In this document: positions 38,033-48,375 of the stretch, piece by piece
Position numbering within the stretch: position 1 is the first letter of the stretch
How the letters are laid out: each line of letters starts with the position of its first letter
Assembly: GCA_963665845.2 (NCBI GenBank)
Contig: OY762492.1
Span: 3,040,001 to 3,104,000, forward strand
Source of the DNA: Candidatus Poribacteria bacterium
Lineage (GTDB): Bacteria; Poribacteria; WGA-4E; GCA-2687025
Length of the DNA stretch: 64,000 nt
Direction of reading: 5' to 3'
Translations under genes and position numbers: made by a program
Notes under the pieces: generated by a model
Told to the model about the DNA's origin: nothing
The model's input: the letters and a program-made list of their open reading frames with translations, nothing else
Databases searched by the model: none

Positions 38033-41000
38033 ATGGACGCAAAGACGCTGGTCGCGGCGGCGGGAATCGGATTGCTCGCGTTTCTGTTTTATCCGAGAAC
38101 GGACGAGACGACAACGACGGGGACTGCCGAATGGGTCGAGACCGCGAAGCAGATCGACGGGGAACCCATCAAGCTTGCCAGCTGGGGGAGAGACGATCCG
38201 CCGTCCGCAACACTCGACCTCCGCTTCATCTATCGGCTGGATAGGGCGCAGATCGAGTTTGAAAACGCCGCTGAAGACGGACCGAGAGCGTATGAGATCG
38301 TTGTCAGCAAGGAGAGAAGCGAGGGGTTTCAGCGCGTCTTTACCTTCAAAAGCTCCTCCCGAAACTATCCATACGCCGCGCTCGAATTTCAAAACCGACA
38401 AGAAGGGCGATGGGTTCAGGCGGCGGTCAATGACTGGTTCAGCGTCAAGCCCGCTGTCAAGGCGTTTCGGGTTGGCGCTGTCTATACGCGCGGCTGGAGT
38501 CCGATAGCGCGCGTCGATACTTCCCACAACAGAGCTGACGCCAACCGGCTCATGGACGGCGTCTTGGCGGAGGAGTCGATCTGGGCGGGCGCGGAGGCGT
38601 CGTCAGAAGAAAAAGAAGGCGAAACGGCAACGCCGTTTCAAACGCCCGCTGAACAGGTGTGGGCGGTTGTGGAGCTGAAGGAGGCGGCGGTTGTGTATGG
38701 AATGCGCGTCGCAACAGGGGGAGCTGGCAACGGCGTTCGCGCTTATCGGGCGTATGCGAGTTTGGACGGGGAGCGGTATCGTCTCATGGGTTCGGCGTCT
38801 GATCTGGCGGATGAGCCGATATTGAGCCGTCTGATGTTTCAAGAACCTGTGAAGGCGCGGTATCTGCGCGTCGAGATCAAACAAGACGAATGGCATGGGT
38901 CTTATCCTGCGCTGCGGGAGATCGAAGCGTTCACCGATTCTTACCGCCCCGCGCCGTCCGTTCAACCGCATGGAGAACAGGATGGCGCAGACGGCGTCAG
39001 CTTCATACAGATACGGCGGGACAACTGCGGACGGAGCCTGGAGCGTTCGCCGCATCTGACGCAGGGCTTTCCGTATGACCGAGGCGAAGGCGTCGGCGCG
39101 TCTGACGTTTCACCGCAAAATCGATACGGATGGATCGAAAAGGAAGAAATCGAGGGCGAGGCGGAGGAGAACCTGCGGACGTTCGCTTACCATTACGACG
39201 CAGTCCGTTTTCATTATGACGGGCTTTCAAAGGAGCGCCGCTACACCTTATATGTGTCGTATCTGCAGAATGTTGGCGGGGGCCGCCGTCAAAATCTGAT
39301 TGTGGACGGGTATCTGCTGCATGGGGATTTGCCGGTTCCGACGGCTGCTCAGCCTCCGCGCGTGTTTGCGGTTCCGCCGCAGGCCGTGGAAGACGGGGAG
39401 CTGGTTGTGTCGGTCAATCGGCTGGCGGGACCGAACGCGGTTGTTTCTGAAATCTCGCTTTATGAGTCGGCGCGGTCGGCGGACGAAGCGGTCGCCGATG
39501 AACGCCGAACCGCCAAGATACTCCAAGCGCATGCGCCGATGATCATCGACGGCAAGCTGGACGACTGGAGCCGACTGCATCCGCTGGGCGTCGGGGAGGG
39601 GGAACCGTCTGTCTGGGCGGAATGGGACGAAGCGGCGCTGTATGTGGCGCTGTCGATACCGACGGGGCTTCTCTCGGAGGCGCCGTCGCTGCAGGACGCC
39701 TTTGACCTGTTCATCGACGCGCGGGTGGACGACGCGGAGCATGCGCCGTCGCTTGCCGCCTATCAGAAAGGCGACATTCATATACGGCTGCTGCGCGTCG
39801 GCGCGAAGTTTCCAGCGGCGCGGTATGTGCGTCATGAGACGGGGCAGGGGGCGTCGGCGCCGTTGGGGTTGCCGGCGGTTCAAACGGCGGCGCGCGTGGA
39901 AGGCGGGATTTACACGCTGGAGATCCAGCTGCCGAAAGAGGGCGCGCTTCCCGACTGGGAGCCGAAAATCGACCGCCTGATTGGTTTGAACTACATCCTA
40001 TCGCTTCCGAACACGGAGACGGGGCTTTGGCATCTGTCGGCGCGGCGTCCGCATGATCCGCCGATGCGCTGGCGGCGCTGTCGGCTGATCGGATCGATTC
40101 AGGGGCGTCTGCAGTTCGGCTCCGCGCCGGTCGATTTTGAAACGGCGGACGGCGGCGTCTTTCCATACTTCGCCGGCGGAAGCCTCTGGGCGATGGCGTA
40201 CGATCCGGACGCGAACCGCGACCCGTCCGTTCAGGAGTCGATCTCCGCCGTCGTTATCGGCGCCTTTGACGAGCGGATGCGCCTTGAGCTGCGGGAGGGA
40301 GCGCTGGTTGTTGGAGAGGGGGGCGAAGTAGAGCTGGAGCCGTCCGCCGACAGCGAGCGGTTTTTTGCGCCTGTTCAGACCGAATACGCCGAGGCCCCGT
40401 TGAACGCCCCGGACCGCATCTCGGCGCGGGGGGGAGAGCTGTTGACCGTCTCATACGAGGACTCGTTCGCGCGGCCGGACGGGTCGGCGGAAACCGCCTC
40501 GGCGCAGGCGTCCGCCGTAACAGGCGCGGACGGAGAGATTCAACTGGAACCTGCCGGACGGTTCACCGCCGGCGACATGCTGCGCATCACAGCCGTTGAC
40601 GGCGACGAACATGGGCTGCTTGAAATCGTAGAAGAAACGGCGGCTGAAGATGCCAACGAAACGGCAGAAGACGGTTCCAATGAGGCGGCGGAGGTTCCGA
40701 CTCCGGCTAACGAAGAGGCGGCGGAGGTTCCGACTCCGGCTAATGAGGAGGCGGCGGAGGTTCCGACTCCGGTTAAAAAAAAGGGGCGCGAGGCGGTTGT
40801 GTCGGCGCTGGATCTGGGCGAGGCGCGGGATGTTGAAACGATCCTTTTAAAAGAGAATGAGAGCGGCGCGTATGAAGGCGCGTTGCCGACCGTATACAGC
40901 ATGGAGCCTATCAGGGGGGACGGCGTCTTGCAGATTGCGGGAAATCAGATTGCGCTGGCGGCGTATGTCGACAAGGCGCGGGCAAGCGGAGAAACGGAGG

Positions 41001-43870
41001 TTTCCGTAACCGCCTCGTCGCGCGCCGCGGCGGGGGACACGGCGCGTCTCCAAATACGCATGCCCGGCGGGTCTTTTGAGAAGGGCGCCGTCGACTCGAC
41101 CGCTCTCTTTAGGGCGGGGTCGCCGCTTATTGTGCGCGTGCGCGACGCCGACTTAAACAAAGACTCGTCCGCCGCCGATACAGCGGTCATTCAGGCGGGA
41201 GGCTCCGTTTTGAACGATTCTTTGACGATTGGATTGACCGAGATATTGCCGAATTCCGGGCTTTTTGAAGGCGCTGTCCCGACGCGCTACGGCGTTCAAG
41301 CGGAAGAAAATGAGAGCATCGAAGCGGCGGGCGGGGAACGCATCGTCTTCAAACATCTGGACGCGCTGCAAGCGACGGGCGAGCCGAACGTTCTGGTGGA
41401 GGCGTATGCTGAAGCGGAAACGGGCGGCGACGGACGGCTCGCCGTTGTGCGCGATGACGGCGCGACCGAAACGGCGCTTTTCAACGCCGGCGACCGGCTC
41501 CATCTGCGCTTAGAAGAGCCGGACGACATCGGGCAAGAGGCGCTGGTTCTGCTTGAAACGCGCGGCGACAACGGACAGGCGCTCGACTCCGAGACCGTCA
41601 TTTTGCGCCGCGCCGCCGGCGACTCGACGCTTTATCTTGGGTTCATTGCGACCGCATACGGCGCGGCTGTTCCGTCGGACGATACGATCCAAGCGCGAGG
41701 GGGCGTTGTCGTTCGGGCTGTGTATCGAGACGCGCTGCGCGTCAGCGGCGAAACGAATGTGGAGGCGTTTGCGTCGGCGTCGGCGAACGCGGGGAGCGAC
41801 GGAATAGTGCGGGCGCTTGACCTGTTTGGAGAGGCGGAGACGGACGCTTTCCGCGCGGGTGAAGCGATACTCATTGAGGTGAGGGACGACGACCTGAACG
41901 CGTCGGACGAGGCGATTGAAACGGCGTCGGCGACGGCGCGGGAGGCTTTTTTGGGGGACTCGGTCGTCGTCGTTCTGCGGGAGACGAGCGGGAGCAGCGG
42001 CGTGTTTCGGGGGGAGCTGCGGACGGCGTATGCGGACGCGGCAGTGGAGGACAATGTGCTTCAGGCGCGGGGGCAAAGTTATGCGGTCATTGAGTATATT
42101 GATGCGCTGTCGGGGGACGGGGAGGCGGGGGCTATGCGGACGGCGGCTCTGTATGCGGCGGCGGGCGAGCGGGGGCGCGTCATGGCGTTGACGCTGGACG
42201 GGGGGCGGCGCGTCGGGAACCTCGCGCCGAACGGAACGGCGCTCATACGGGTTGTGGACGGCGATCTGAATGTTGACCCGCTGTTTCGGGAGTCGACCGA
42301 GGTAACAGCGGAGGGCAACCTGCTGGGCGACCAGTTACGGCTTGCGCTGCGTGAAACTGGGGCGGACACGGGCGTGTTTGAGGCGCGGCTGGCGACGGAA
42401 CTTTCTAGCGAGGCGAACCGAAGCGATCTGCTTTTACAGACGGCGGAGCAGGAGACGGTGACGGTCGTTTATGTTGATGGGTTGACCGACGCAGGCGAGC
42501 CGAACGCGCCTGCGAGCGTCCGCCTTGTCGTCGCTGGTTCTAGTCCGGGGCGCATTGAGATTGTGGAGGCGGACGGGTCGGAGATGACAGCGTTTACGGC
42601 GGGGGATTTTCTCTATGTGAGGGTTCAGGATTTGCTTTTGGCGGCGGATCCGAACATTCGCCCTGCGGCGCTGTTCACGGCGTCTGAATCAGGAGACCAG
42701 GCGCGGACCGTTCTGGAGCCTGTTCCAGGGGGAGCGGGGCAATTTTGGGGGCGGATATCGACGCGGTACAGCTTGCTGCCATCAAGGGACGACACGCTGG
42801 ATGTTCGCGGCGGGGAGACGGTCGCGGCAACCTATGCGCCGGAAGGGCTGTTTGGGCGGGTCATCGCGGATGAGACGACGGCGCGGCGGGGTCAACGCGG
42901 TCAACTGACAGCGGCGATGGCGGACGGGTCGCCGCTTCTGGAGCTGGCGCCGGGGGATACGGCGATGGCGCTGTTGTATGACGGCGACCGAAACGCGGAC
43001 CCGTTCGCCGTTGAGACGGTCGAGGCGACGGCGTCGGCGCAGGGAGGAGCGGAACCGATACCTATAGTACTGCAGGAGACGGCGGCGAATTCTGGGGTTT
43101 TTCAAGGCGCGGTTCTCACCTCCTACGGTAGAGAGGCGGATGCGGGAGTCATCGGTCTCACAGGCGGCGAAACAATCAAGGTCGCCTACGTTGATCCGCT
43201 GACGGATACGGGCGAAGCGGGCGTTGAGATTGAAACGACGGTTCGAGTCCGCAAGGTGGGGTTTGCGCCGTATTCTGAAAACAGAGTATCGGTGGACGGC
43301 GTCCCGAACCTGTGGGCTTTGGAGCGGGCGATGAGTTCGTCGGGGGAGGAGATACGGGTTTGGGCGTTGTGGACGCGCGACGCGCTCTATTTTTTCATTC
43401 AGGTTAAAGACGAGTCGATTGTTGTGGAGGATGTGACGCGCTGGCATATCGGCTCCGATGCGGTGGAGCTGCACTTGACGCCGTTTCAGGAGGAGCGGGA
43501 TTTGCCGGGGCATCTGCTGTCGGCGGGGGCGTCGGCGCCTGGGTCTGTTTTTTGGATATGTCCGCGAGGGGGCGGGTATTCAGGCGATCAGCCCTATATC
43601 GGTCAGGCGGCGCCGCGGCGCGTTTATAACCTGTCGGGACGGGCGGGCGCGGGGCTGGCGGTCAAGACGGGGGACGGATACTGGACGCTGGAAGCGCGGC
43701 TGCCGTACGGGGCGGCGCTGGGCGGGTTCGATCCGTTCACGTCTCGGAAGCGGCGGAAGATCGGGTTCAACGTTCTGCTGTACCGCTCGGACGCGGCGCA
43801 GGTCTGGTGGGCGGAACCGCTGCGGCGACCGAGCGGGGCGGGCGTTCTGTATCTGGAGGGCGGTCCGTGA
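38033..43870 (+). CDS. Giant exported/surface protein: discoidin-like domains, two CBM9-like domains and eight ~120-aa acidic repeats
   Basis: 1945 aa; N-terminal hydrophobic helix; LMDG...ARYLRV; IDGKLDDW; repeated D.DLN.D...L.ET...SGVF.G...GGE...Y.D. Confidence 0.8.
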   Translation: MDAKTLVAAAGIGLLAFLFYPRTDETTTTGTAEWVETAKQIDGEPIKLASWGRDDPPSATLDLRFIYRLDRAQIEFENAAEDGPRAYEIVVSKERSEGFQRVFTFKSSSRNYPYAALEFQNRQEGRWVQAAVNDWFSVKPAVKAFRVGAVYTRGWSPIARVDTSHNRADANRLMDGVLAEESIWAGAEASSEEKEGETATPFQTPAEQVWAVVELKEAAVVYGMRVATGGAGNGVRAYRAYASLDGERYRLMGSASDLADEPILSRLMFQEPVKARYLRVEIKQDEWHGSYPALREIEAFTDSYRPAPSVQPHGEQDGADGVSFIQIRRDNCGRSLERSPHLTQGFPYDRGEGVGASDVSPQNRYGWIEKEEIEGEAEENLRTFAYHYDAVRFHYDGLSKERRYTLYVSYLQNVGGGRRQNLIVDGYLLHGDLPVPTAAQPPRVFAVPPQAVEDGELVVSVNRLAGPNAVVSEISLYESARSADEAVADERRTAKILQAHAPMIIDGKLDDWSRLHPLGVGEGEPSVWAEWDEAALYVALSIPTGLLSEAPSLQDAFDLFIDARVDDAEHAPSLAAYQKGDIHIRLLRVGAKFPAARYVRHETGQGASAPLGLPAVQTAARVEGGIYTLEIQLPKEGALPDWEPKIDRLIGLNYILSLPNTETGLWHLSARRPHDPPMRWRRCRLIGSIQGRLQFGSAPVDFETADGGVFPYFAGGSLWAMAYDPDANRDPSVQESISAVVIGAFDERMRLELREGALVVGEGGEVELEPSADSERFFAPVQTEYAEAPLNAPDRISARGGELLTVSYEDSFARPDGSAETASAQASAVTGADGEIQLEPAGRFTAGDMLRITAVDGDEHGLLEIVEETAAEDANETAEDGSNEAAEVPTPANEEAAEVPTPANEEAAEVPTPVKKKGREAVVSALDLGEARDVETILLKENESGAYEGALPTVYSMEPIRGDGVLQIAGNQIALAAYVDKARASGETEVSVTASSRAAAGDTARLQIRMPGGSFEKGAVDSTALFRAGSPLIVRVRDADLNKDSSAADTAVIQAGGSVLNDSLTIGLTEILPNSGLFEGAVPTRYGVQAEENESIEAAGGERIVFKHLDALQATGEPNVLVEAYAEAETGGDGRLAVVRDDGATETALFNAGDRLHLRLEEPDDIGQEALVLLETRGDNGQALDSETVILRRAAGDSTLYLGFIATAYGAAVPSDDTIQARGGVVVRAVYRDALRVSGETNVEAFASASANAGSDGIVRALDLFGEAETDAFRAGEAILIEVRDDDLNASDEAIETASATAREAFLGDSVVVVLRETSGSSGVFRGELRTAYADAAVEDNVLQARGQSYAVIEYIDALSGDGEAGAMRTAALYAAAGERGRVMALTLDGGRRVGNLAPNGTALIRVVDGDLNVDPLFRESTEVTAEGNLLGDQLRLALRETGADTGVFEARLATELSSEANRSDLLLQTAEQETVTVVYVDGLTDAGEPNAPASVRLVVAGSSPGRIEIVEADGSEMTAFTAGDFLYVRVQDLLLAADPNIRPAALFTASESGDQARTVLEPVPGGAGQFWGRISTRYSLLPSRDDTLDVRGGETVAATYAPEGLFGRVIADETTARRGQRGQLTAAMADGSPLLELAPGDTAMALLYDGDRNADPFAVETVEATASAQGGAEPIPIVLQETAANSGVFQGAVLTSYGREADAGVIGLTGGETIKVAYVDPLTDTGEAGVEIETTVRVRKVGFAPYSENRVSVDGVPNLWALERAMSSSGEEIRVWALWTRDALYFFIQVKDESIVVEDVTRWHIGSDAVELHLTPFQEERDLPGHLLSAGASAPGSVFWICPRGGGYSGDQPYIGQAAPRRVYNLSGRAGAGLAVKTGDGYWTLEARLPYGAALGGFDPFTSRKRRKIGFNVLLYRSDAAQVWWAEPLRRPSGAGVLYLEGGP
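40682..40773 (+). repeat. 33-bp in-frame tandem repeat, about three copies (EAAEVPTPANE)
   Basis: GAGGCGGCGGAGGTTCCGACTCCGG occurs three times at 33-bp spacing. Confidence 0.95.
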
Positions 43871-43973
43871 GTTTCTAAAAATTTGGTCAAAATAAATAAA
43901 ACGCTTGCAATGCGCGGCGAGTTACAGTAAGTTACTGAGTAACGGCATCGGAAGACGATAGGCTCAAGCATGA

Positions 43974-46070
43974 GTGGGGCATGAGATGGCGCATCTGGAG
44001 AAGATTTCAGCGATTCTCAGGGATAGCAATTACCGCCTAGATTTGTTCACCGACGATGAAGTCCGAAATCTGGACGATAAAATCAAAATGCTAAAAAGCA
44101 GGAGCGTTCCGCTTATTGAATGCACCTTTCGGAAAAAGTCGGTTCAAGCAAAGCCGGAGGAGCTGGTTCGCCAACTCTACGCGGACCGCCTCTGGGATTA
44201 CTACGGCTATCAGGATCGCATCAGGTTTGAGCATCTTGTGAACTTCGGACGCGAACGAAAGCGCGCCGATATCGTCATCCTCGACAAGGAAAGGGAGGAG
44301 TATCCTTATATCATCGTTGAGGTGAAGAAGCCGAAGCTGCAAGATGGTAAGGCGCAGCTGCGTTCTTACACAAACGCAACAGGCGCGCCTATCGCTGTCT
44401 GGACCAACGGAGAGAAAATTTCTCACTACTATCGCAGGGACCCGAACTACTTTGAGGAAATCACCGACATTCCGAAGGCGGACCAGACGCTCGCGGACAT
44501 TATCAAGGAACGGTTTACGCTTAAAAATCTCATTCTCAAAGACAAGCTGTTCACGGAGCGCAAATCCTTAAAGGATGTCATTTTAGACCTGGAGGATGAG
44601 GTGCTGGCGAACGCCGGGGTTGACGTCTTTGAGGAGGTGTTCAAGCTGATCTTCACGAAGCTCTACGACGAGTTCAAAAGTCGCGACGACAAAGAATTTA
44701 TCAACCGCATCTTGCGTCAAAAAGCGAACGTCGAAATCCGAGAATCTAGCGCGCCATACGGTTCTGGCGTACCCGATCATGAAACCATCAGAAATGCGGT
44801 TGCGGATATTTCAGATGATGATTTTCGTCGTATGGAATTTCGCAACACCGGGCAAACCGATGCCGAGCTCAATGCAAAAATACACAGGCTATTCAAAGAA
44901 GCAAAAAGCCAATGGAGCGGCGTCTTCCCGGACTATTCAGAGTTTGAGCTTTCGGACAGCCACCTCGCCGTTTGCGTGTCCAGCTTGCAGGATGTAAGAT
45001 TGTTCAACTCCAACCTGCAGATTGTTGATGAAGCGTTTGAGTACCTTGTCAGCAAATCGGCGAAAGGCAAAAAGGGGCAGTACTTCACCCCGCGCCACGT
45101 GATCGATATGTGCGTCAAAATGCTGAACCCGAAACGCGGCGAATACATGATTGACACGGCGGCGGGAAGCTGCGGCTTTCCGGTGCATACCATTTTCAAG
45201 CTAACTGGTACGCTTTTCACGAACGCGGAAATTCCAAAAGAGGATAAGGAAAACGTCCTCAAGGTGTTCGGCATCGATTTCGATGAAAAAGCTGTAAGGG
45301 TCGCGCGGACGCTTAACCTGATTGCAGGCGATGGCGAAACAAATGTCCTGCATCTCAACACGCTCGACTATAAGCGGTGGAACGAGCGGACAGAACGGTG
45401 GATAAAGACATACGGCAAAGGATATGATCGGCTCAGAGACAGAGCGTCGCCCCGCGGACAGAACAAAACGTTCGACTTCGATATTCTGATGGCGAATCCT
45501 CCATTTGCCGGCGACATCAAGGAGAGTCGCATCCTCCATCAATACAGCATCAGCTTCAGAGAAAACGGCAAAGCGTATTCGAAAGTCGGGCGCGACATTC
45601 TGTTCATTGAGCGAAATCTGGATTTCTTGAAACCCGGCGGACGCATGGCGATCGTGTTGCCGCAAGGAAGATTCAACAACACAACCGATCAACGCATCCG
45701 AGAGTTTGTCGCGGAGCGCGCCCGCATCTTGGCGGTTGTCAGTCTGCATGTCAACACATTCAAGCCGCATACGGGGACGAAAACTAGCGTTCTGTTTCTG
45801 CAGAAGTGGGACGCAGAATCAACTGAGGAGCCGGTCTGCCCCAAAGTAAGCGACTACCCGATCTTTTTTGCGGTCAGCGAAAAAAGCGGCAAAGACAACT
45901 CCGGCAAGTATGTGTATCTTGAAAGCAGCGGCGGGAAATACAAAATGGATCGAAATGGCCACCTGATTGTGGAGCACGATCTGCACAATCACGATGGCGA
46001 ACTGCCCGACGGCGTCGCCGAAGCGTTTATCGAATGGGCGAAAAAAGAAAAACTGAGTTTCTGGTCATGA
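43974..46070 (+). CDS. Fused restriction nuclease (HsdR_N-like PD-(D/E)XK) / N6-adenine methyltransferase
   Basis: PEELVRQ, RADIV...IVEVK, WTNG; GQYFTPR, DTAAGSCGF, ANPPF. Confidence 0.92.
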   Translation: MGHEMAHLEKISAILRDSNYRLDLFTDDEVRNLDDKIKMLKSRSVPLIECTFRKKSVQAKPEELVRQLYADRLWDYYGYQDRIRFEHLVNFGRERKRADIVILDKEREEYPYIIVEVKKPKLQDGKAQLRSYTNATGAPIAVWTNGEKISHYYRRDPNYFEEITDIPKADQTLADIIKERFTLKNLILKDKLFTERKSLKDVILDLEDEVLANAGVDVFEEVFKLIFTKLYDEFKSRDDKEFINRILRQKANVEIRESSAPYGSGVPDHETIRNAVADISDDDFRRMEFRNTGQTDAELNAKIHRLFKEAKSQWSGVFPDYSEFELSDSHLAVCVSSLQDVRLFNSNLQIVDEAFEYLVSKSAKGKKGQYFTPRHVIDMCVKMLNPKRGEYMIDTAAGSCGFPVHTIFKLTGTLFTNAEIPKEDKENVLKVFGIDFDEKAVRVARTLNLIAGDGETNVLHLNTLDYKRWNERTERWIKTYGKGYDRLRDRASPRGQNKTFDFDILMANPPFAGDIKESRILHQYSISFRENGKAYSKVGRDILFIERNLDFLKPGGRMAIVLPQGRFNNTTDQRIREFVAERARILAVVSLHVNTFKPHTGTKTSVLFLQKWDAESTEEPVCPKVSDYPIFFAVSEKSGKDNSGKYVYLESSGGKYKMDRNGHLIVEHDLHNHDGELPDGVAEAFIEWAKKEKLSFWS

Positions 46071-46894
46071 CATACATCGGAAATGAACTCCAGTGGAAGC
46101 AGCTTGTCGAGGTTGACTGGTTGGGACAGTACGTTAAAGCATGGGTCGCCTTCAACGCTTGGTATAGCAATAATTTCAGGCATCCGGACGCGGGAAAACG
46201 CTTTAGAGATCGCGAAATCATCGAAAAAATCAAAAACGATGAAGGCAATGTCCGTTCAAAAGTAGAGCGTTTGCTATCAGGGGAAGGATCCGACCAAAAG
46301 TCTTTCCAGACAAACTTGGCGGACCTTCACAAATCCTTGGGAGATGTTACTGTGAAGTTGAGTGGGATACGTGTTTCATTCGAAGAAGTTGAAGATTATA
46401 AATCCGCAAAATCTATCGATAGAAAGCATTTCGGGATACAATACAATATAGAAGTTAATCCCGACAAAAGAAATCGGTTAATAACGGTTAAAAACAGAGC
46501 GAATACGAATATTTTCGATGAAGTTATTACGTCAAGCGATGAGGAAAAGTTTAAAGGCGTTAAATGGTTTGAGGATTTGAGGGAAAGTGGGTTTTTTGTA
46601 AAACTAAACCCCCATCAAATGAAATATCTTAGGACTTATATTACAGAATCGACACCCATCCACAATTTATTATACAAACATGTCGGTGATTTCACCGATC
46701 CCGACGTGTCTTACATAGATATTGGACAGTATAAATTTATTAACGATAAAGTTTTAATTGCGCGATCGCTCATTGAAATTTTATACAAATTAAGAAATTC
46801 GCTCTTCCATGGTGAAGTTGTGCCGAATGATGTCCAAAATGTGTACCAAAACGCTTATTTGATCTTGAAATATATAATACCTGATGGAGTATGA
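46067..46894 (+). CDS. Putative HEPN-domain protein
   Basis: WVAFNAWY near N-terminus and LYKLRNSLFHG (RxxxxH) near C-terminus; ATGA overlap with methyltransferase stop; AT-rich. Confidence 0.75.
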   Translation: MTYIGNELQWKQLVEVDWLGQYVKAWVAFNAWYSNNFRHPDAGKRFRDREIIEKIKNDEGNVRSKVERLLSGEGSDQKSFQTNLADLHKSLGDVTVKLSGIRVSFEEVEDYKSAKSIDRKHFGIQYNIEVNPDKRNRLITVKNRANTNIFDEVITSSDEEKFKGVKWFEDLRESGFFVKLNPHQMKYLRTYITESTPIHNLLYKHVGDFTDPDVSYIDIGQYKFINDKVLIARSLIEILYKLRNSLFHGEVVPNDVQNVYQNAYLILKYIIPDGV

Positions 46895-46897
46895 TCT

Positions 46898-48310
46898 TTG
46901 CGACATTCAGCCGTTAATTCCTCAGAAGTTGCGCGCGTCGGCGGATTTAGAATCGACGCAGATTATTGGGATCCTGTCTATATTGAAAACAGCAAACTGG
47001 TTTCATCTGGGTACAGGTTGAAAGATTTTGTATCTCCGCATATCGCCAACATCAAAACTTCCCCTGTCAACCGAGACTTCGAGTATCTGGAAATCTCCCG
47101 AATCTCGATGACCAACGTTGAATATCGAACAGCTACGGTGGCGCAAGGTGCAGCGCCGGACCGCGCCCGTCACATCTTACAGAAAGGGGATGTGGTCGTG
47201 TCTACCGTCAGGCCTAACCGAAACGCTGTCGCCCTGATTGAAGAGGATGGCGTGGTCGGTAGCAGCGGCTTGTCGGTTCTAAGACCGAGTGCCACTGTCT
47301 TAAGAGGCAAGATAGAAAGCGAGTACTTGTTTGCGTTTTGCAAGACCCGCTACTTTGTAAACTGCCTAATGCGGGCAAACAAGGCGAGCATGTACCCGGC
47401 TGTTTCAAACGCTGATGTGCTGAATACGCCATTTTATAGTGCTTCCGAATCTTTCAGAAATCAAGTCGCGCGGATAGTCCGACGCTCTATTTCCTGTCTA
47501 TCTGAAGCTAAGACGCAGCGCGCTGAAGCCGAAGCGATACTCCTCTCTGAAGTCGGCTTAGCCGACTGGCGTCCGGAGCAGGAGCTCGCTTTCGTCAAAA
47601 ACTACTCTGACGCGTGGCACGTTGAACGCATAGACGCCGACTACTTCCAGCCGAAATACGACGAAATCGTTGACGCGATCAAGGCGTATCCGGATGGCTG
47701 GGATACGCTGGGGAATCTATGTTCAACAAAAAGAGGTTCTTTAATCAAAGATTCATTCTATGATAAAAAAGAAGGAACACCTTATATTCGAGGAGGTAAC
47801 TTCTCTGGCGGCGTATTATCATACAAAAACATGGTTTATATCAATTCTGAATTTAAGCATTCAAAGGAGACACAAGTATATGAAAATGACATTGTTTTTT
47901 CCTTAATTGGCAGCGTCGGGGAATCTGCGCTTGTTACAAAAGAATTCCATGGCGCATATATATCAAACAATACTGGCAAAATAGAATGTAAATCGCTCAT
48001 TTTTGCTACTTTTCTCCAAATTTTACTTGCGTCAATTGTCGGGAAATCGTATTTTGAGAAGTATAAAACCCAAACTGCCCAGCCAAAAATATCGGACAAA
48101 GATTTGCATAATTTTGTTATTCCTATTCTGTCTACAGACAAGCAACGCCAAATTGAGCGAAAGGTCGCCGAGGTCTCTGAATCTCTCAACCTGCGCCAGC
48201 GTTCCAAAGAGCTTTTGGAATGCGCCAAGCGCGCTGTAGAGATCGCCATTGAGCAGGATGAGCAAACCGCCATCGACTGGCTGCGTCAAAAGACGGAGGG
48301 CGGCGCCTAA
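46898..48310 (+). CDS. hsdS: Restriction-modification specificity (S) subunit, two TRDs
   Basis: RIDADY repeated twice, STVRP, coiled-coil spacer, C-terminal SKELLECAKRAVEIAIE. Confidence 0.88.
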   Translation: MRHSAVNSSEVARVGGFRIDADYWDPVYIENSKLVSSGYRLKDFVSPHIANIKTSPVNRDFEYLEISRISMTNVEYRTATVAQGAAPDRARHILQKGDVVVSTVRPNRNAVALIEEDGVVGSSGLSVLRPSATVLRGKIESEYLFAFCKTRYFVNCLMRANKASMYPAVSNADVLNTPFYSASESFRNQVARIVRRSISCLSEAKTQRAEAEAILLSEVGLADWRPEQELAFVKNYSDAWHVERIDADYFQPKYDEIVDAIKAYPDGWDTLGNLCSTKRGSLIKDSFYDKKEGTPYIRGGNFSGGVLSYKNMVYINSEFKHSKETQVYENDIVFSLIGSVGESALVTKEFHGAYISNNTGKIECKSLIFATFLQILLASIVGKSYFEKYKTQTAQPKISDKDLHNFVIPILSTDKQRQIERKVAEVSESLNLRQRSKELLECAKRAVEIAIEQDEQTAIDWLRQKTEGGA

Positions 48311-48375
48311 GATTCCCGCGCGTTACGTTTACCGCAAGGGGCAAGGGCGGGAATGACCGACCGGACGCGCGCTCA

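Follow-up and report, generated by a model that had tools for sequence, protein, structure and literature searches.

The middle gene of a three-gene restriction-modification (R-M) operon in Candidatus Poribacteria encodes a protein that, judged from its conservation and predicted models, is very probably a HEPN protein. We put the chances at about even that it is a back-up RNase resembling PrrC, without an ABC domain and tied to a Type IIB-like R-M system. The operon lies in a 64,000-nucleotide stretch of contig OY762492.1 (assembly GCA_963665845.2, positions 3,040,001 to 3,104,000), called the window below, whose coordinates are used throughout. Three same-strand open reading frames (ORFs) were found, encoding a restriction endonuclease-methyltransferase fusion (RM), the middle protein (275 amino acids, aa) and a specificity subunit (S) (Table 1). 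The layout described in a sequence-only reading of this DNA was all present: a nuclease-methylase fusion, a coupled gene containing RNSLFHG, whose start overlaps the RM stop in the ATGA at 46067-46070, and an S gene starting 3 bp downstream of its stop. An alternative start for RM is the GTG at 43974. The back-up reading is supported because the Arg and His of the motif are invariant at the position expected in HEPN domains, and because a restriction-type gene adjoins the family wherever the flanks can be read.

Table 1. Features of the R-M operon, in window coordinates
Feature	Position	Strand	Evidence
RM, restriction endonuclease-methyltransferase fusion (HSDR_N_2 + N6_Mtase), 694 aa	43986..46070 (ATG)	+	Pfam PF13588 E 4.6e-23, PF02384 E 9.9e-34
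PD-(D/E)XK-type nuclease domain of RM; E59, D95, E112, K114 intact	44154..44474	+	invariant in 47/47 family-linked RM proteins
NPPF catalytic motif of adenine methylase	45495..45506	+	sequence; PPF invariant in 47/47 linked RMs
Middle gene, 275-aa predicted HEPN RNase of an unnamed family	46067..46894	+	sequence, homologues, predicted models
Variable beta-rich insert, aa 95-227, between predicted HEPN helices 2 and 3	46349..46747	+	AF2 model
RNSLFHG motif (R243, H248; aa 243-249), end of predicted helix 3	46793..46813	+	alignment A4, 131 sequences
S subunit, 470 aa, two target-recognition halves	46898 (TTG)..48310	+	Pfam PF01420 E 1.4e-14; PADLOC Specificity_I, both halves

The sequence-only reading had taken RNSLFHG as a HEPN signature. 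An R-x4-6-H pattern arises in 69% of 10,000 shuffles of the middle protein and therefore carries weight only by being conserved; the stricter pattern R[NC]xxxHG arises in 0.14%. Rx4-6H is kept in 100 of 101 homologues and in 131 of 131 diverse members, and the two residues are the sole invariant columns of the 131-sequence alignment. The signature thus stood as an invariant pair at the HEPN-expected position, not as a motif by itself. The residue after the Arg is Asn in 58 of the aligned sequences, including the window protein, and Cys in 73.

The middle protein has 100 close homologues, and the wider family amounts to 697 clusters at 50% identity (E<=0.001), 150 of which were listed. It contains no Walker A motif, no ABC domain and no Cys. 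No model in Pfam, PADLOC or NCBIfam names it or the 97-131 homologues tested, which together with the missing Walker A bears out the earlier statement that it is neither PrrC nor RloC. Profiles of named HEPN families (ApeA, Swt1-like, HEC-08 and others) gave no family-level match across 131 members: no family recurred, Cas13-ApeA gave a single touch at E 0.001, and HEPN_Swt1 touched 5 of 97 homologues, with a best E of 4e-4. A PDB sequence search yielded no significant link to known HEPN proteins, and a search of the ESM Atlas with homologue P0126 found unnamed clusters only. The RefSeq-derived names encountered for family members were 'hypothetical protein'. Searched with tblastn, a phage collection gave no match and a plasmid collection one record.

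The AlphaFold2 (AF2) model of the middle protein (pLDDT 91) contains helices at residues 18-36 and 75-93, an insert, and helices at 228-247 and 257-270. A 175-aa short form (AlphaFold model, pLDDT 92) has the same helix order, and in both models the motif ends a long helix that follows the variable insert and precedes the last helix. The cited papers were available to us in part; the available text of one HEPN survey (PMC3710099) places an insert between helices 2 and 3 and the motif where helix 3 ends, and gives N, D or H as the usual residue after the Arg. Because the order of motif and insert matches this definition, the layout of both models fits HEPN. Structural comparison with VIA matched the HEPN chains 1wwp (Z 5.8, root-mean-square deviation (rmsd) 2.7, 89 residues aligned) and 8xdj (Z 5.5, rmsd 2.1, 82 aligned), and, at Z 4.1-5.0, Cas13 HEPN, AbiA and 7ae2; the top match was an unrelated chain, 1zs9 (Z 6.4). 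With each of two independent models, HEPN chains recur among the VIA rows that cover the full span. Foldseek, one of the checks proposed earlier, was run against PDB and BFVD and returned nothing at E<=0.001, hence no significant HEPN match.

Conservation of the insert is 0.47, compared with 0.65 and 0.77 elsewhere in the protein, and the insert is much reduced in the short form. Its matches to PUR-alpha, PC4 and Whirly domains are weak (Z 4.2-5.2, background level). From the models it is a candidate sensor or binding domain. The short form (188-221 aa, most of the beta insert gone) was found at L072-L075, L090, L100, L107, L133, L143-L145 and L148; several of its members carry the motif variants RCALFHA and RNILIHG, and the gene at L088 is split.

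The lack of any significant sequence, profile or Foldseek link to known HEPN proteins, and the Cys after the Arg in 73 members, at a position where N, D or H is usual in HEPN, would suit a helical regulatory or accessory subunit outside defence, with another role for R-x4-H such as trimming the operon's own mRNA. We regard this as improbable: the Arg and His are invariant at the HEPN position, HEPN chains recur for both models, most RMs lack the gene, and, as described below, a known HEPN defence family can take its place in the slot.

The neighbourhood survey agrees with the expectation that homologues associate with R-M loci. The GTDB set comprised 65 loci, of which 58 were full length, and a restriction-type gene adjoins the family gene (H) in all 58. 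The order is RM-S-H in 42, RM-H-S in 5, H followed by an RM-S fusion in 3 and H-RM in 1; three more read S-H at contig edges, and the remaining four, without RM or S, have a DUF262 partner. A gene wedged between RM and S, the arrangement stressed in the sequence-only reading, is therefore the minority order (5/58), and RM-S-H is the common one. Three of the seven partial matches outside the 58 (L046, L058, L061-L065) adjoin RM or S, and four showed neither. Hosts in this set include Poribacteria, Bacteroidota, Bacillota, Cyanobacteria, Gammaproteobacteria, Chloroflexota, Aquificota and Campylobacterota. Ninety further loci were taken from metagenomes (80, the best of 438 confirmed), viral contigs (8) and a 401-genome Bacteroidota sample (2). 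RM, S or DUF262 lies within 300 bp in 85 of these 90, and the other five are contig-truncated, with 0-322 bp of upstream sequence. There is partial overlap between the locus sets (L001-L005 come back among the phylum matches, and L040 is L173), and kin are included.

With these motif-pattern surveys, neither the GTDB and phylum sets nor those from viruses and metagenomes yielded a solo copy with readable flanks. The link to restriction holds over three gene orders and two RM clades, in a family that is rare: it occurs in 2 of the 401 Bacteroidota genomes, one being the seed. According to the available text of Payne et al. (10.1101/2024.01.29.577857), most of the systems found embedded occur mainly in non-embedded form, and PrrC stands out as embedded almost exclusively. 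Since the family has no readable solo copy, it behaves like PrrC in this near-exclusive linkage to a restriction system. The correlation between HEPN and RM trees (Spearman 0.76, 47 pairs) was not used as evidence of co-evolution, because kin share both genes. Eight IMG/VR viral contigs (L165-L172) carry S-H or RM-S-H, two of them with a split H gene, so that the module is also carried by prophage-like elements. On one conjugative plasmid (L164, NZ_LR890357.1) the consecutive genes are an N6-methylase gene, S, the family gene (named 'hypothetical protein') and a pair of DUF262 genes.

The host system differs from the Type I-style context suggested by the comparison with PrrC. In a PDB sequence search the closest solved relative of RM was RM.BsaXI (E 1.1e-18), which we take to belong to the Type IIB class. 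Type IIB enzymes are defined by cutting on both sides of a bipartite site, and they excise short DNA fragments. The architecture here is Type IIB-like, with a nuclease-methylase fusion (HSDR_N_2 domain at aa 57-163 of RM) and a separate S with two target-recognition regions but without a motor subunit. No ORF for an HsdR motor was found within the surrounding 20 kb (36-56 kb of the window), and the HsdR-type PF18766 was nowhere over its cut-off in the genome, which is 90% complete; membership of Type I was rejected on these grounds. The sequence thus points to an apparently intact two-subunit Type IIB-like R-M system. MADS was also considered and rejected (MAD2 282 bits against a threshold of 720, MAD5 109 against 400; an island of three genes only). 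The same genome encodes a second, distant HSDR_N_2-methylase paralogue (28% identity; G000:C1:2397480-2399243). In a sequencing run from another study (X5, contig 19), an RM-HEPN-S locus is about 87% alike over 45567-48310 of the window, and 458 different letters stand in place of 47692-48170, where S has its second target-recognition region; the specificity is swapped there and the HEPN gene retained.

Across 151 Poribacteria genomes, RM was found in 76 and the family in 19, with every copy directly 3' of RM. After removal of 4 duplicates there were 89 distinct RM 3' ends. These slots contain 6 long-form and 13 short-form members of the family, 11 ZnF-DUF4145 (RAZR-like) genes and 8 other inserts (3 DUF5677-like and below cut-off, 1 PIN and 4 unassigned); 45 have no evident same-strand tenant and 6 are fusions of RM to half an S, also without a tenant. 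A HEPN-type gene thus occupies 30 of the 38 filled slots, from two unrelated families: profile comparison of the family with the DUF4145 tenants (hhalign) gave no match (probability 0.5%). The RM does not need the middle gene, and the slot is optional and swappable. On a careful tree of 30 RMs the short form clusters, and the long form and DUF4145 do not; clustering of the long form on a quick RM tree was gone on the careful one. The RAZR-like genes served as a control. Of their 17 matches, 11 are at RM, 3 are full length with no RM or S in the 1.5-kb flanks, 1 is behind a distant M/S gene and 2 are fragments, so the control separates the two tenants only modestly.

Other occupants of these slots were also noted. 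An approximately 420-aa DUF5677-like gene (below cut-off) at L130, L134 and L139 is a candidate defence gene. At L128 (G079:C1:3776000-3789000) and L117 (G108) two or three RM genes stand in tandem, some fused to half an S. A repeat-rich RM-S insert of 400-630 bp recurs at L111, L123, L137, L141 and L156, with no credible gene on the same strand, the only strand considered.

A second type of partner was found in one sub-lineage. In the four GTDB loci without RM or S, a DUF262 gene lies no more than 6 bp from the family gene. In all, ten loci pair the family with DUF262 and show no RM or S, seven of them with at least 3.9 kb of upstream sequence. On the family tree (FastTree) the members linked to DUF262 group together, with 2 changes compared with 9.8 after shuffling. 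Two loci, L057 and L060, read RM-S-H-DUF262, plausibly an intermediate order. DGQQR is present in 12 of 12 DUF262 partners, every one of which lacks the [ED]H-x-P HNH motif; GmrSD_C gave no match in the six partners tested, and a weak alignment (6.2 bits) to PDB 9jfl puts a degenerate stretch over the EHI motif. The best PADLOC match of all 12 is HEC-06, yet HEC-06 requires its EHICP HNH motif in the text available to us (10.1101/2024.01.29.577857). Because DGQQR is kept and the HNH motif is missing, the simplest reading is that the DUF262 partner is a nuclease-dead sensor with a HEPN effector.

If the middle gene is a PrrC-like back-up, its product would remain latent while the restriction complex works. 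A phage that disables the complex would set the RNase, by analogy a dimeric enzyme, to cut host RNA, and infection would be aborted. The same analogy suggests that coupling would run through the restriction-type partner and not through an ATPase of its own, with anti-restriction as the trigger; in the DUF262 sub-lineage, a partner with an NTPase motif and no HNH would act as the sensor only. A broader proposal, to which we give somewhat less than even weight, is that this is a cross-phylum, ATPase-free HEPN family unable to act alone, whose sensor would be a restriction-type protein: most lineages would use an active Type IIB-like RM-S for this, and another a GmrSD-like NTPase that is nuclease-dead and acts as a decoy.

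Several observations weigh against the back-up reading. HEPN structures are matched weakly (Z 4.1-5.8), behind an unrelated top match, and Foldseek was empty. The family persists where the P0002-type RM (window RM as query) was not found, in 4 of 4 genomes tested, and the gene is intact beside a split RM or S at L023, L030, L175, L193, L239 and L242, splits that are possibly assembly errors. RMs that are 87-97% identical carry different tenants, and on the careful RM tree the long-form carriers require 4 changes for 4 rows; as near-identical RMs differ in tenant and these carriers are unclustered, no specialisation of RM is visible. RAZR-like genes also occur in this slot, and as RAZR needs no second protein for defence, embedding in the slot alone does not show guarding. 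Finally, the surveys used conserved-motif patterns and top matches, and distant solo members may be missed. The split loci argue against simple toxin-antitoxin neutralisation by M and S. Together with the copies in RM-less genomes they suggest, if the splits are real, a default-off enzyme that is activated and not a default-on toxin that is neutralised.

The middle protein could instead be an autonomous sensor-effector RNase that follows the logic of RAZR or HepS, with the beta insert sensing a phage product and the gene being co-transferred and co-expressed operon cargo. RAZR-like genes in 11 of the 89 slots fit this, as do the two sizes of the insert and its conservation, the lowest in the protein, the survival of the gene without RM, and the frequent embedding of independent systems (10.1101/2024.01.29.577857, available text). 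We nevertheless judge it unlikely, though the main competitor, since no solo copy with readable flanks was found in the motif-pattern surveys, whereas the RAZR-like control has solo copies, and a nuclease-dead-looking alternative partner is hard to explain if the genes are independent. An amplifier in place of a guard would be switched on by restriction products or activity, for example by excised fragments bound to the insert, and would fire when restriction is busy. The weak likeness of the insert to single-stranded nucleic-acid binders, the nuclease motif intact in all 47 linked RMs and the excision of short fragments by Type IIB enzymes would agree with this. We think it distinctly unlikely, as the insert matches do not rise above background Z, most of the insert is missing from the short form and the DUF262 partner lacks the HNH motif.

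Among known systems, PrrC of the EcoprrI Type IC locus is likewise a HEPN-motif gene found almost only in or beside R-M operons, optional for R-M and proposed as a back-up (available text of PMC3710099 and 10.1101/2024.01.29.577857). It differs in being a multi-domain protein with its own ABC-ATPase in a Type I hsdMSR locus with a motor, whereas the family protein is small and ABC-free, has a Type IIB-like RM and S as host, varies in position and has a second, GmrSD-like partner type. The concept itself is not new. Anantharaman et al. (2013; PMC3710099), in the available part, list at least 16 R-M-linked HEPN clades and propose release when R-M is neutralised, with PrrC and its own ATPase switch as the only biochemical example given, so that R-M-guarding HEPN proteins are a known kind. 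The suggestion of a possibly undescribed R-M-guarding module may accordingly hold for a family nameless in the profile libraries but not for the principle. The clades of 2013 (ApeA/BMEI1217, Abi2, Ymh, DUF4145, EC042_2821 and others) share the R-M linkage; none of their Pfam models matches the 131 members at E<=0.01, and clades without a model may overlap the family.

RAZR (PD-T7-4) resembles the middle protein as a small protein combining sensor and HEPN, and RAZR-like genes share the RM-S slot in Poribacteria. It is a ZnF-DUF4145 protein that defends alone and senses phage rings (PMC13017515, PMC13434031, available text), and relatives of it occur solo here; the middle protein, in contrast, has no Cys4 zinc finger and no match to PF13643. 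In Ronin, an HsdMS decoy is paired with RonA, an effector that is always R-M-linked and triggered by anti-restriction proteins (10.1101/2023.04.06.535777, available text). The HNH-less DUF262 pairing resembles this decoy logic, but the Ronin effector is a 61-aa membrane protein and that of the family a predicted RNase, 275 aa long and of soluble helical type. Ronin was rejected for the window locus, where the restriction nuclease motif is intact and the effector soluble-type. Type IIB systems such as BsaXI share the RM fusion and separate S, a likeness known here from sequence only. DefensePredictor validated four HEPN systems (PMC13092281, available text), and the family may have been catalogued before. 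A literature search, with most subscription journals outside its range, found no paper in which the family, HEPN proteins with a Type IIB-like system or the DUF262 pairing without HNH is described.

The GC content is 0.505 in RM, 0.383 in the middle gene and 0.47 in S, compared with 0.63-0.64 in the flanking genes and 0.597 in the main contig. The island is thus AT-rich, as the sequence-only reading had it, only relative to its flanks. No whole gene in it is richer in AT than the middle gene, but towards its 3' end (47700-48200; GC 0.375) S falls about as low. A contig from a public run, possibly the window's own source data, covers 45170-48357, from the end of RM to the end of S, with zero differences, and the order of the genes therefore does not stem from a faulty join; no RNA data set was found to contain the sequence. 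In the one same-genus genome searched, both flanks were matched, on separate contigs, and the island was not, which is consistent with a horizontally acquired cassette. An imperfect 21-nt direct repeat (76%) at the island ends (43855-43875 and 48295-48315) covers the stop codons of the upstream gene and of S; it is possibly an insertion scar and possibly chance. Directly upstream, a 1945-aa protein (38033-43870, + strand) combines internal repeats with F5/8 type C and weak CBM9/Ig-like domains, and is also present in the same-genus genome.

The family has no ATPase switch, is invisible to Pfam, NCBIfam and PADLOC, and spans many phyla, plasmids and viral contigs. Near-identical RMs without a tenant, with the family gene or with a RAZR-like gene, together with the two-gene DUF262 version, are natural controls, and because they exist the question of guard or hitch-hiker is directly testable with two or three genes. 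If the broader proposal of a family with a restriction-type sensor is true, it would extend guard and decoy immunity to Type IIB and GmrSD-like systems, and the operon would be a minimal three-gene (or two-gene) model for an RNase that reads out the failure of restriction.

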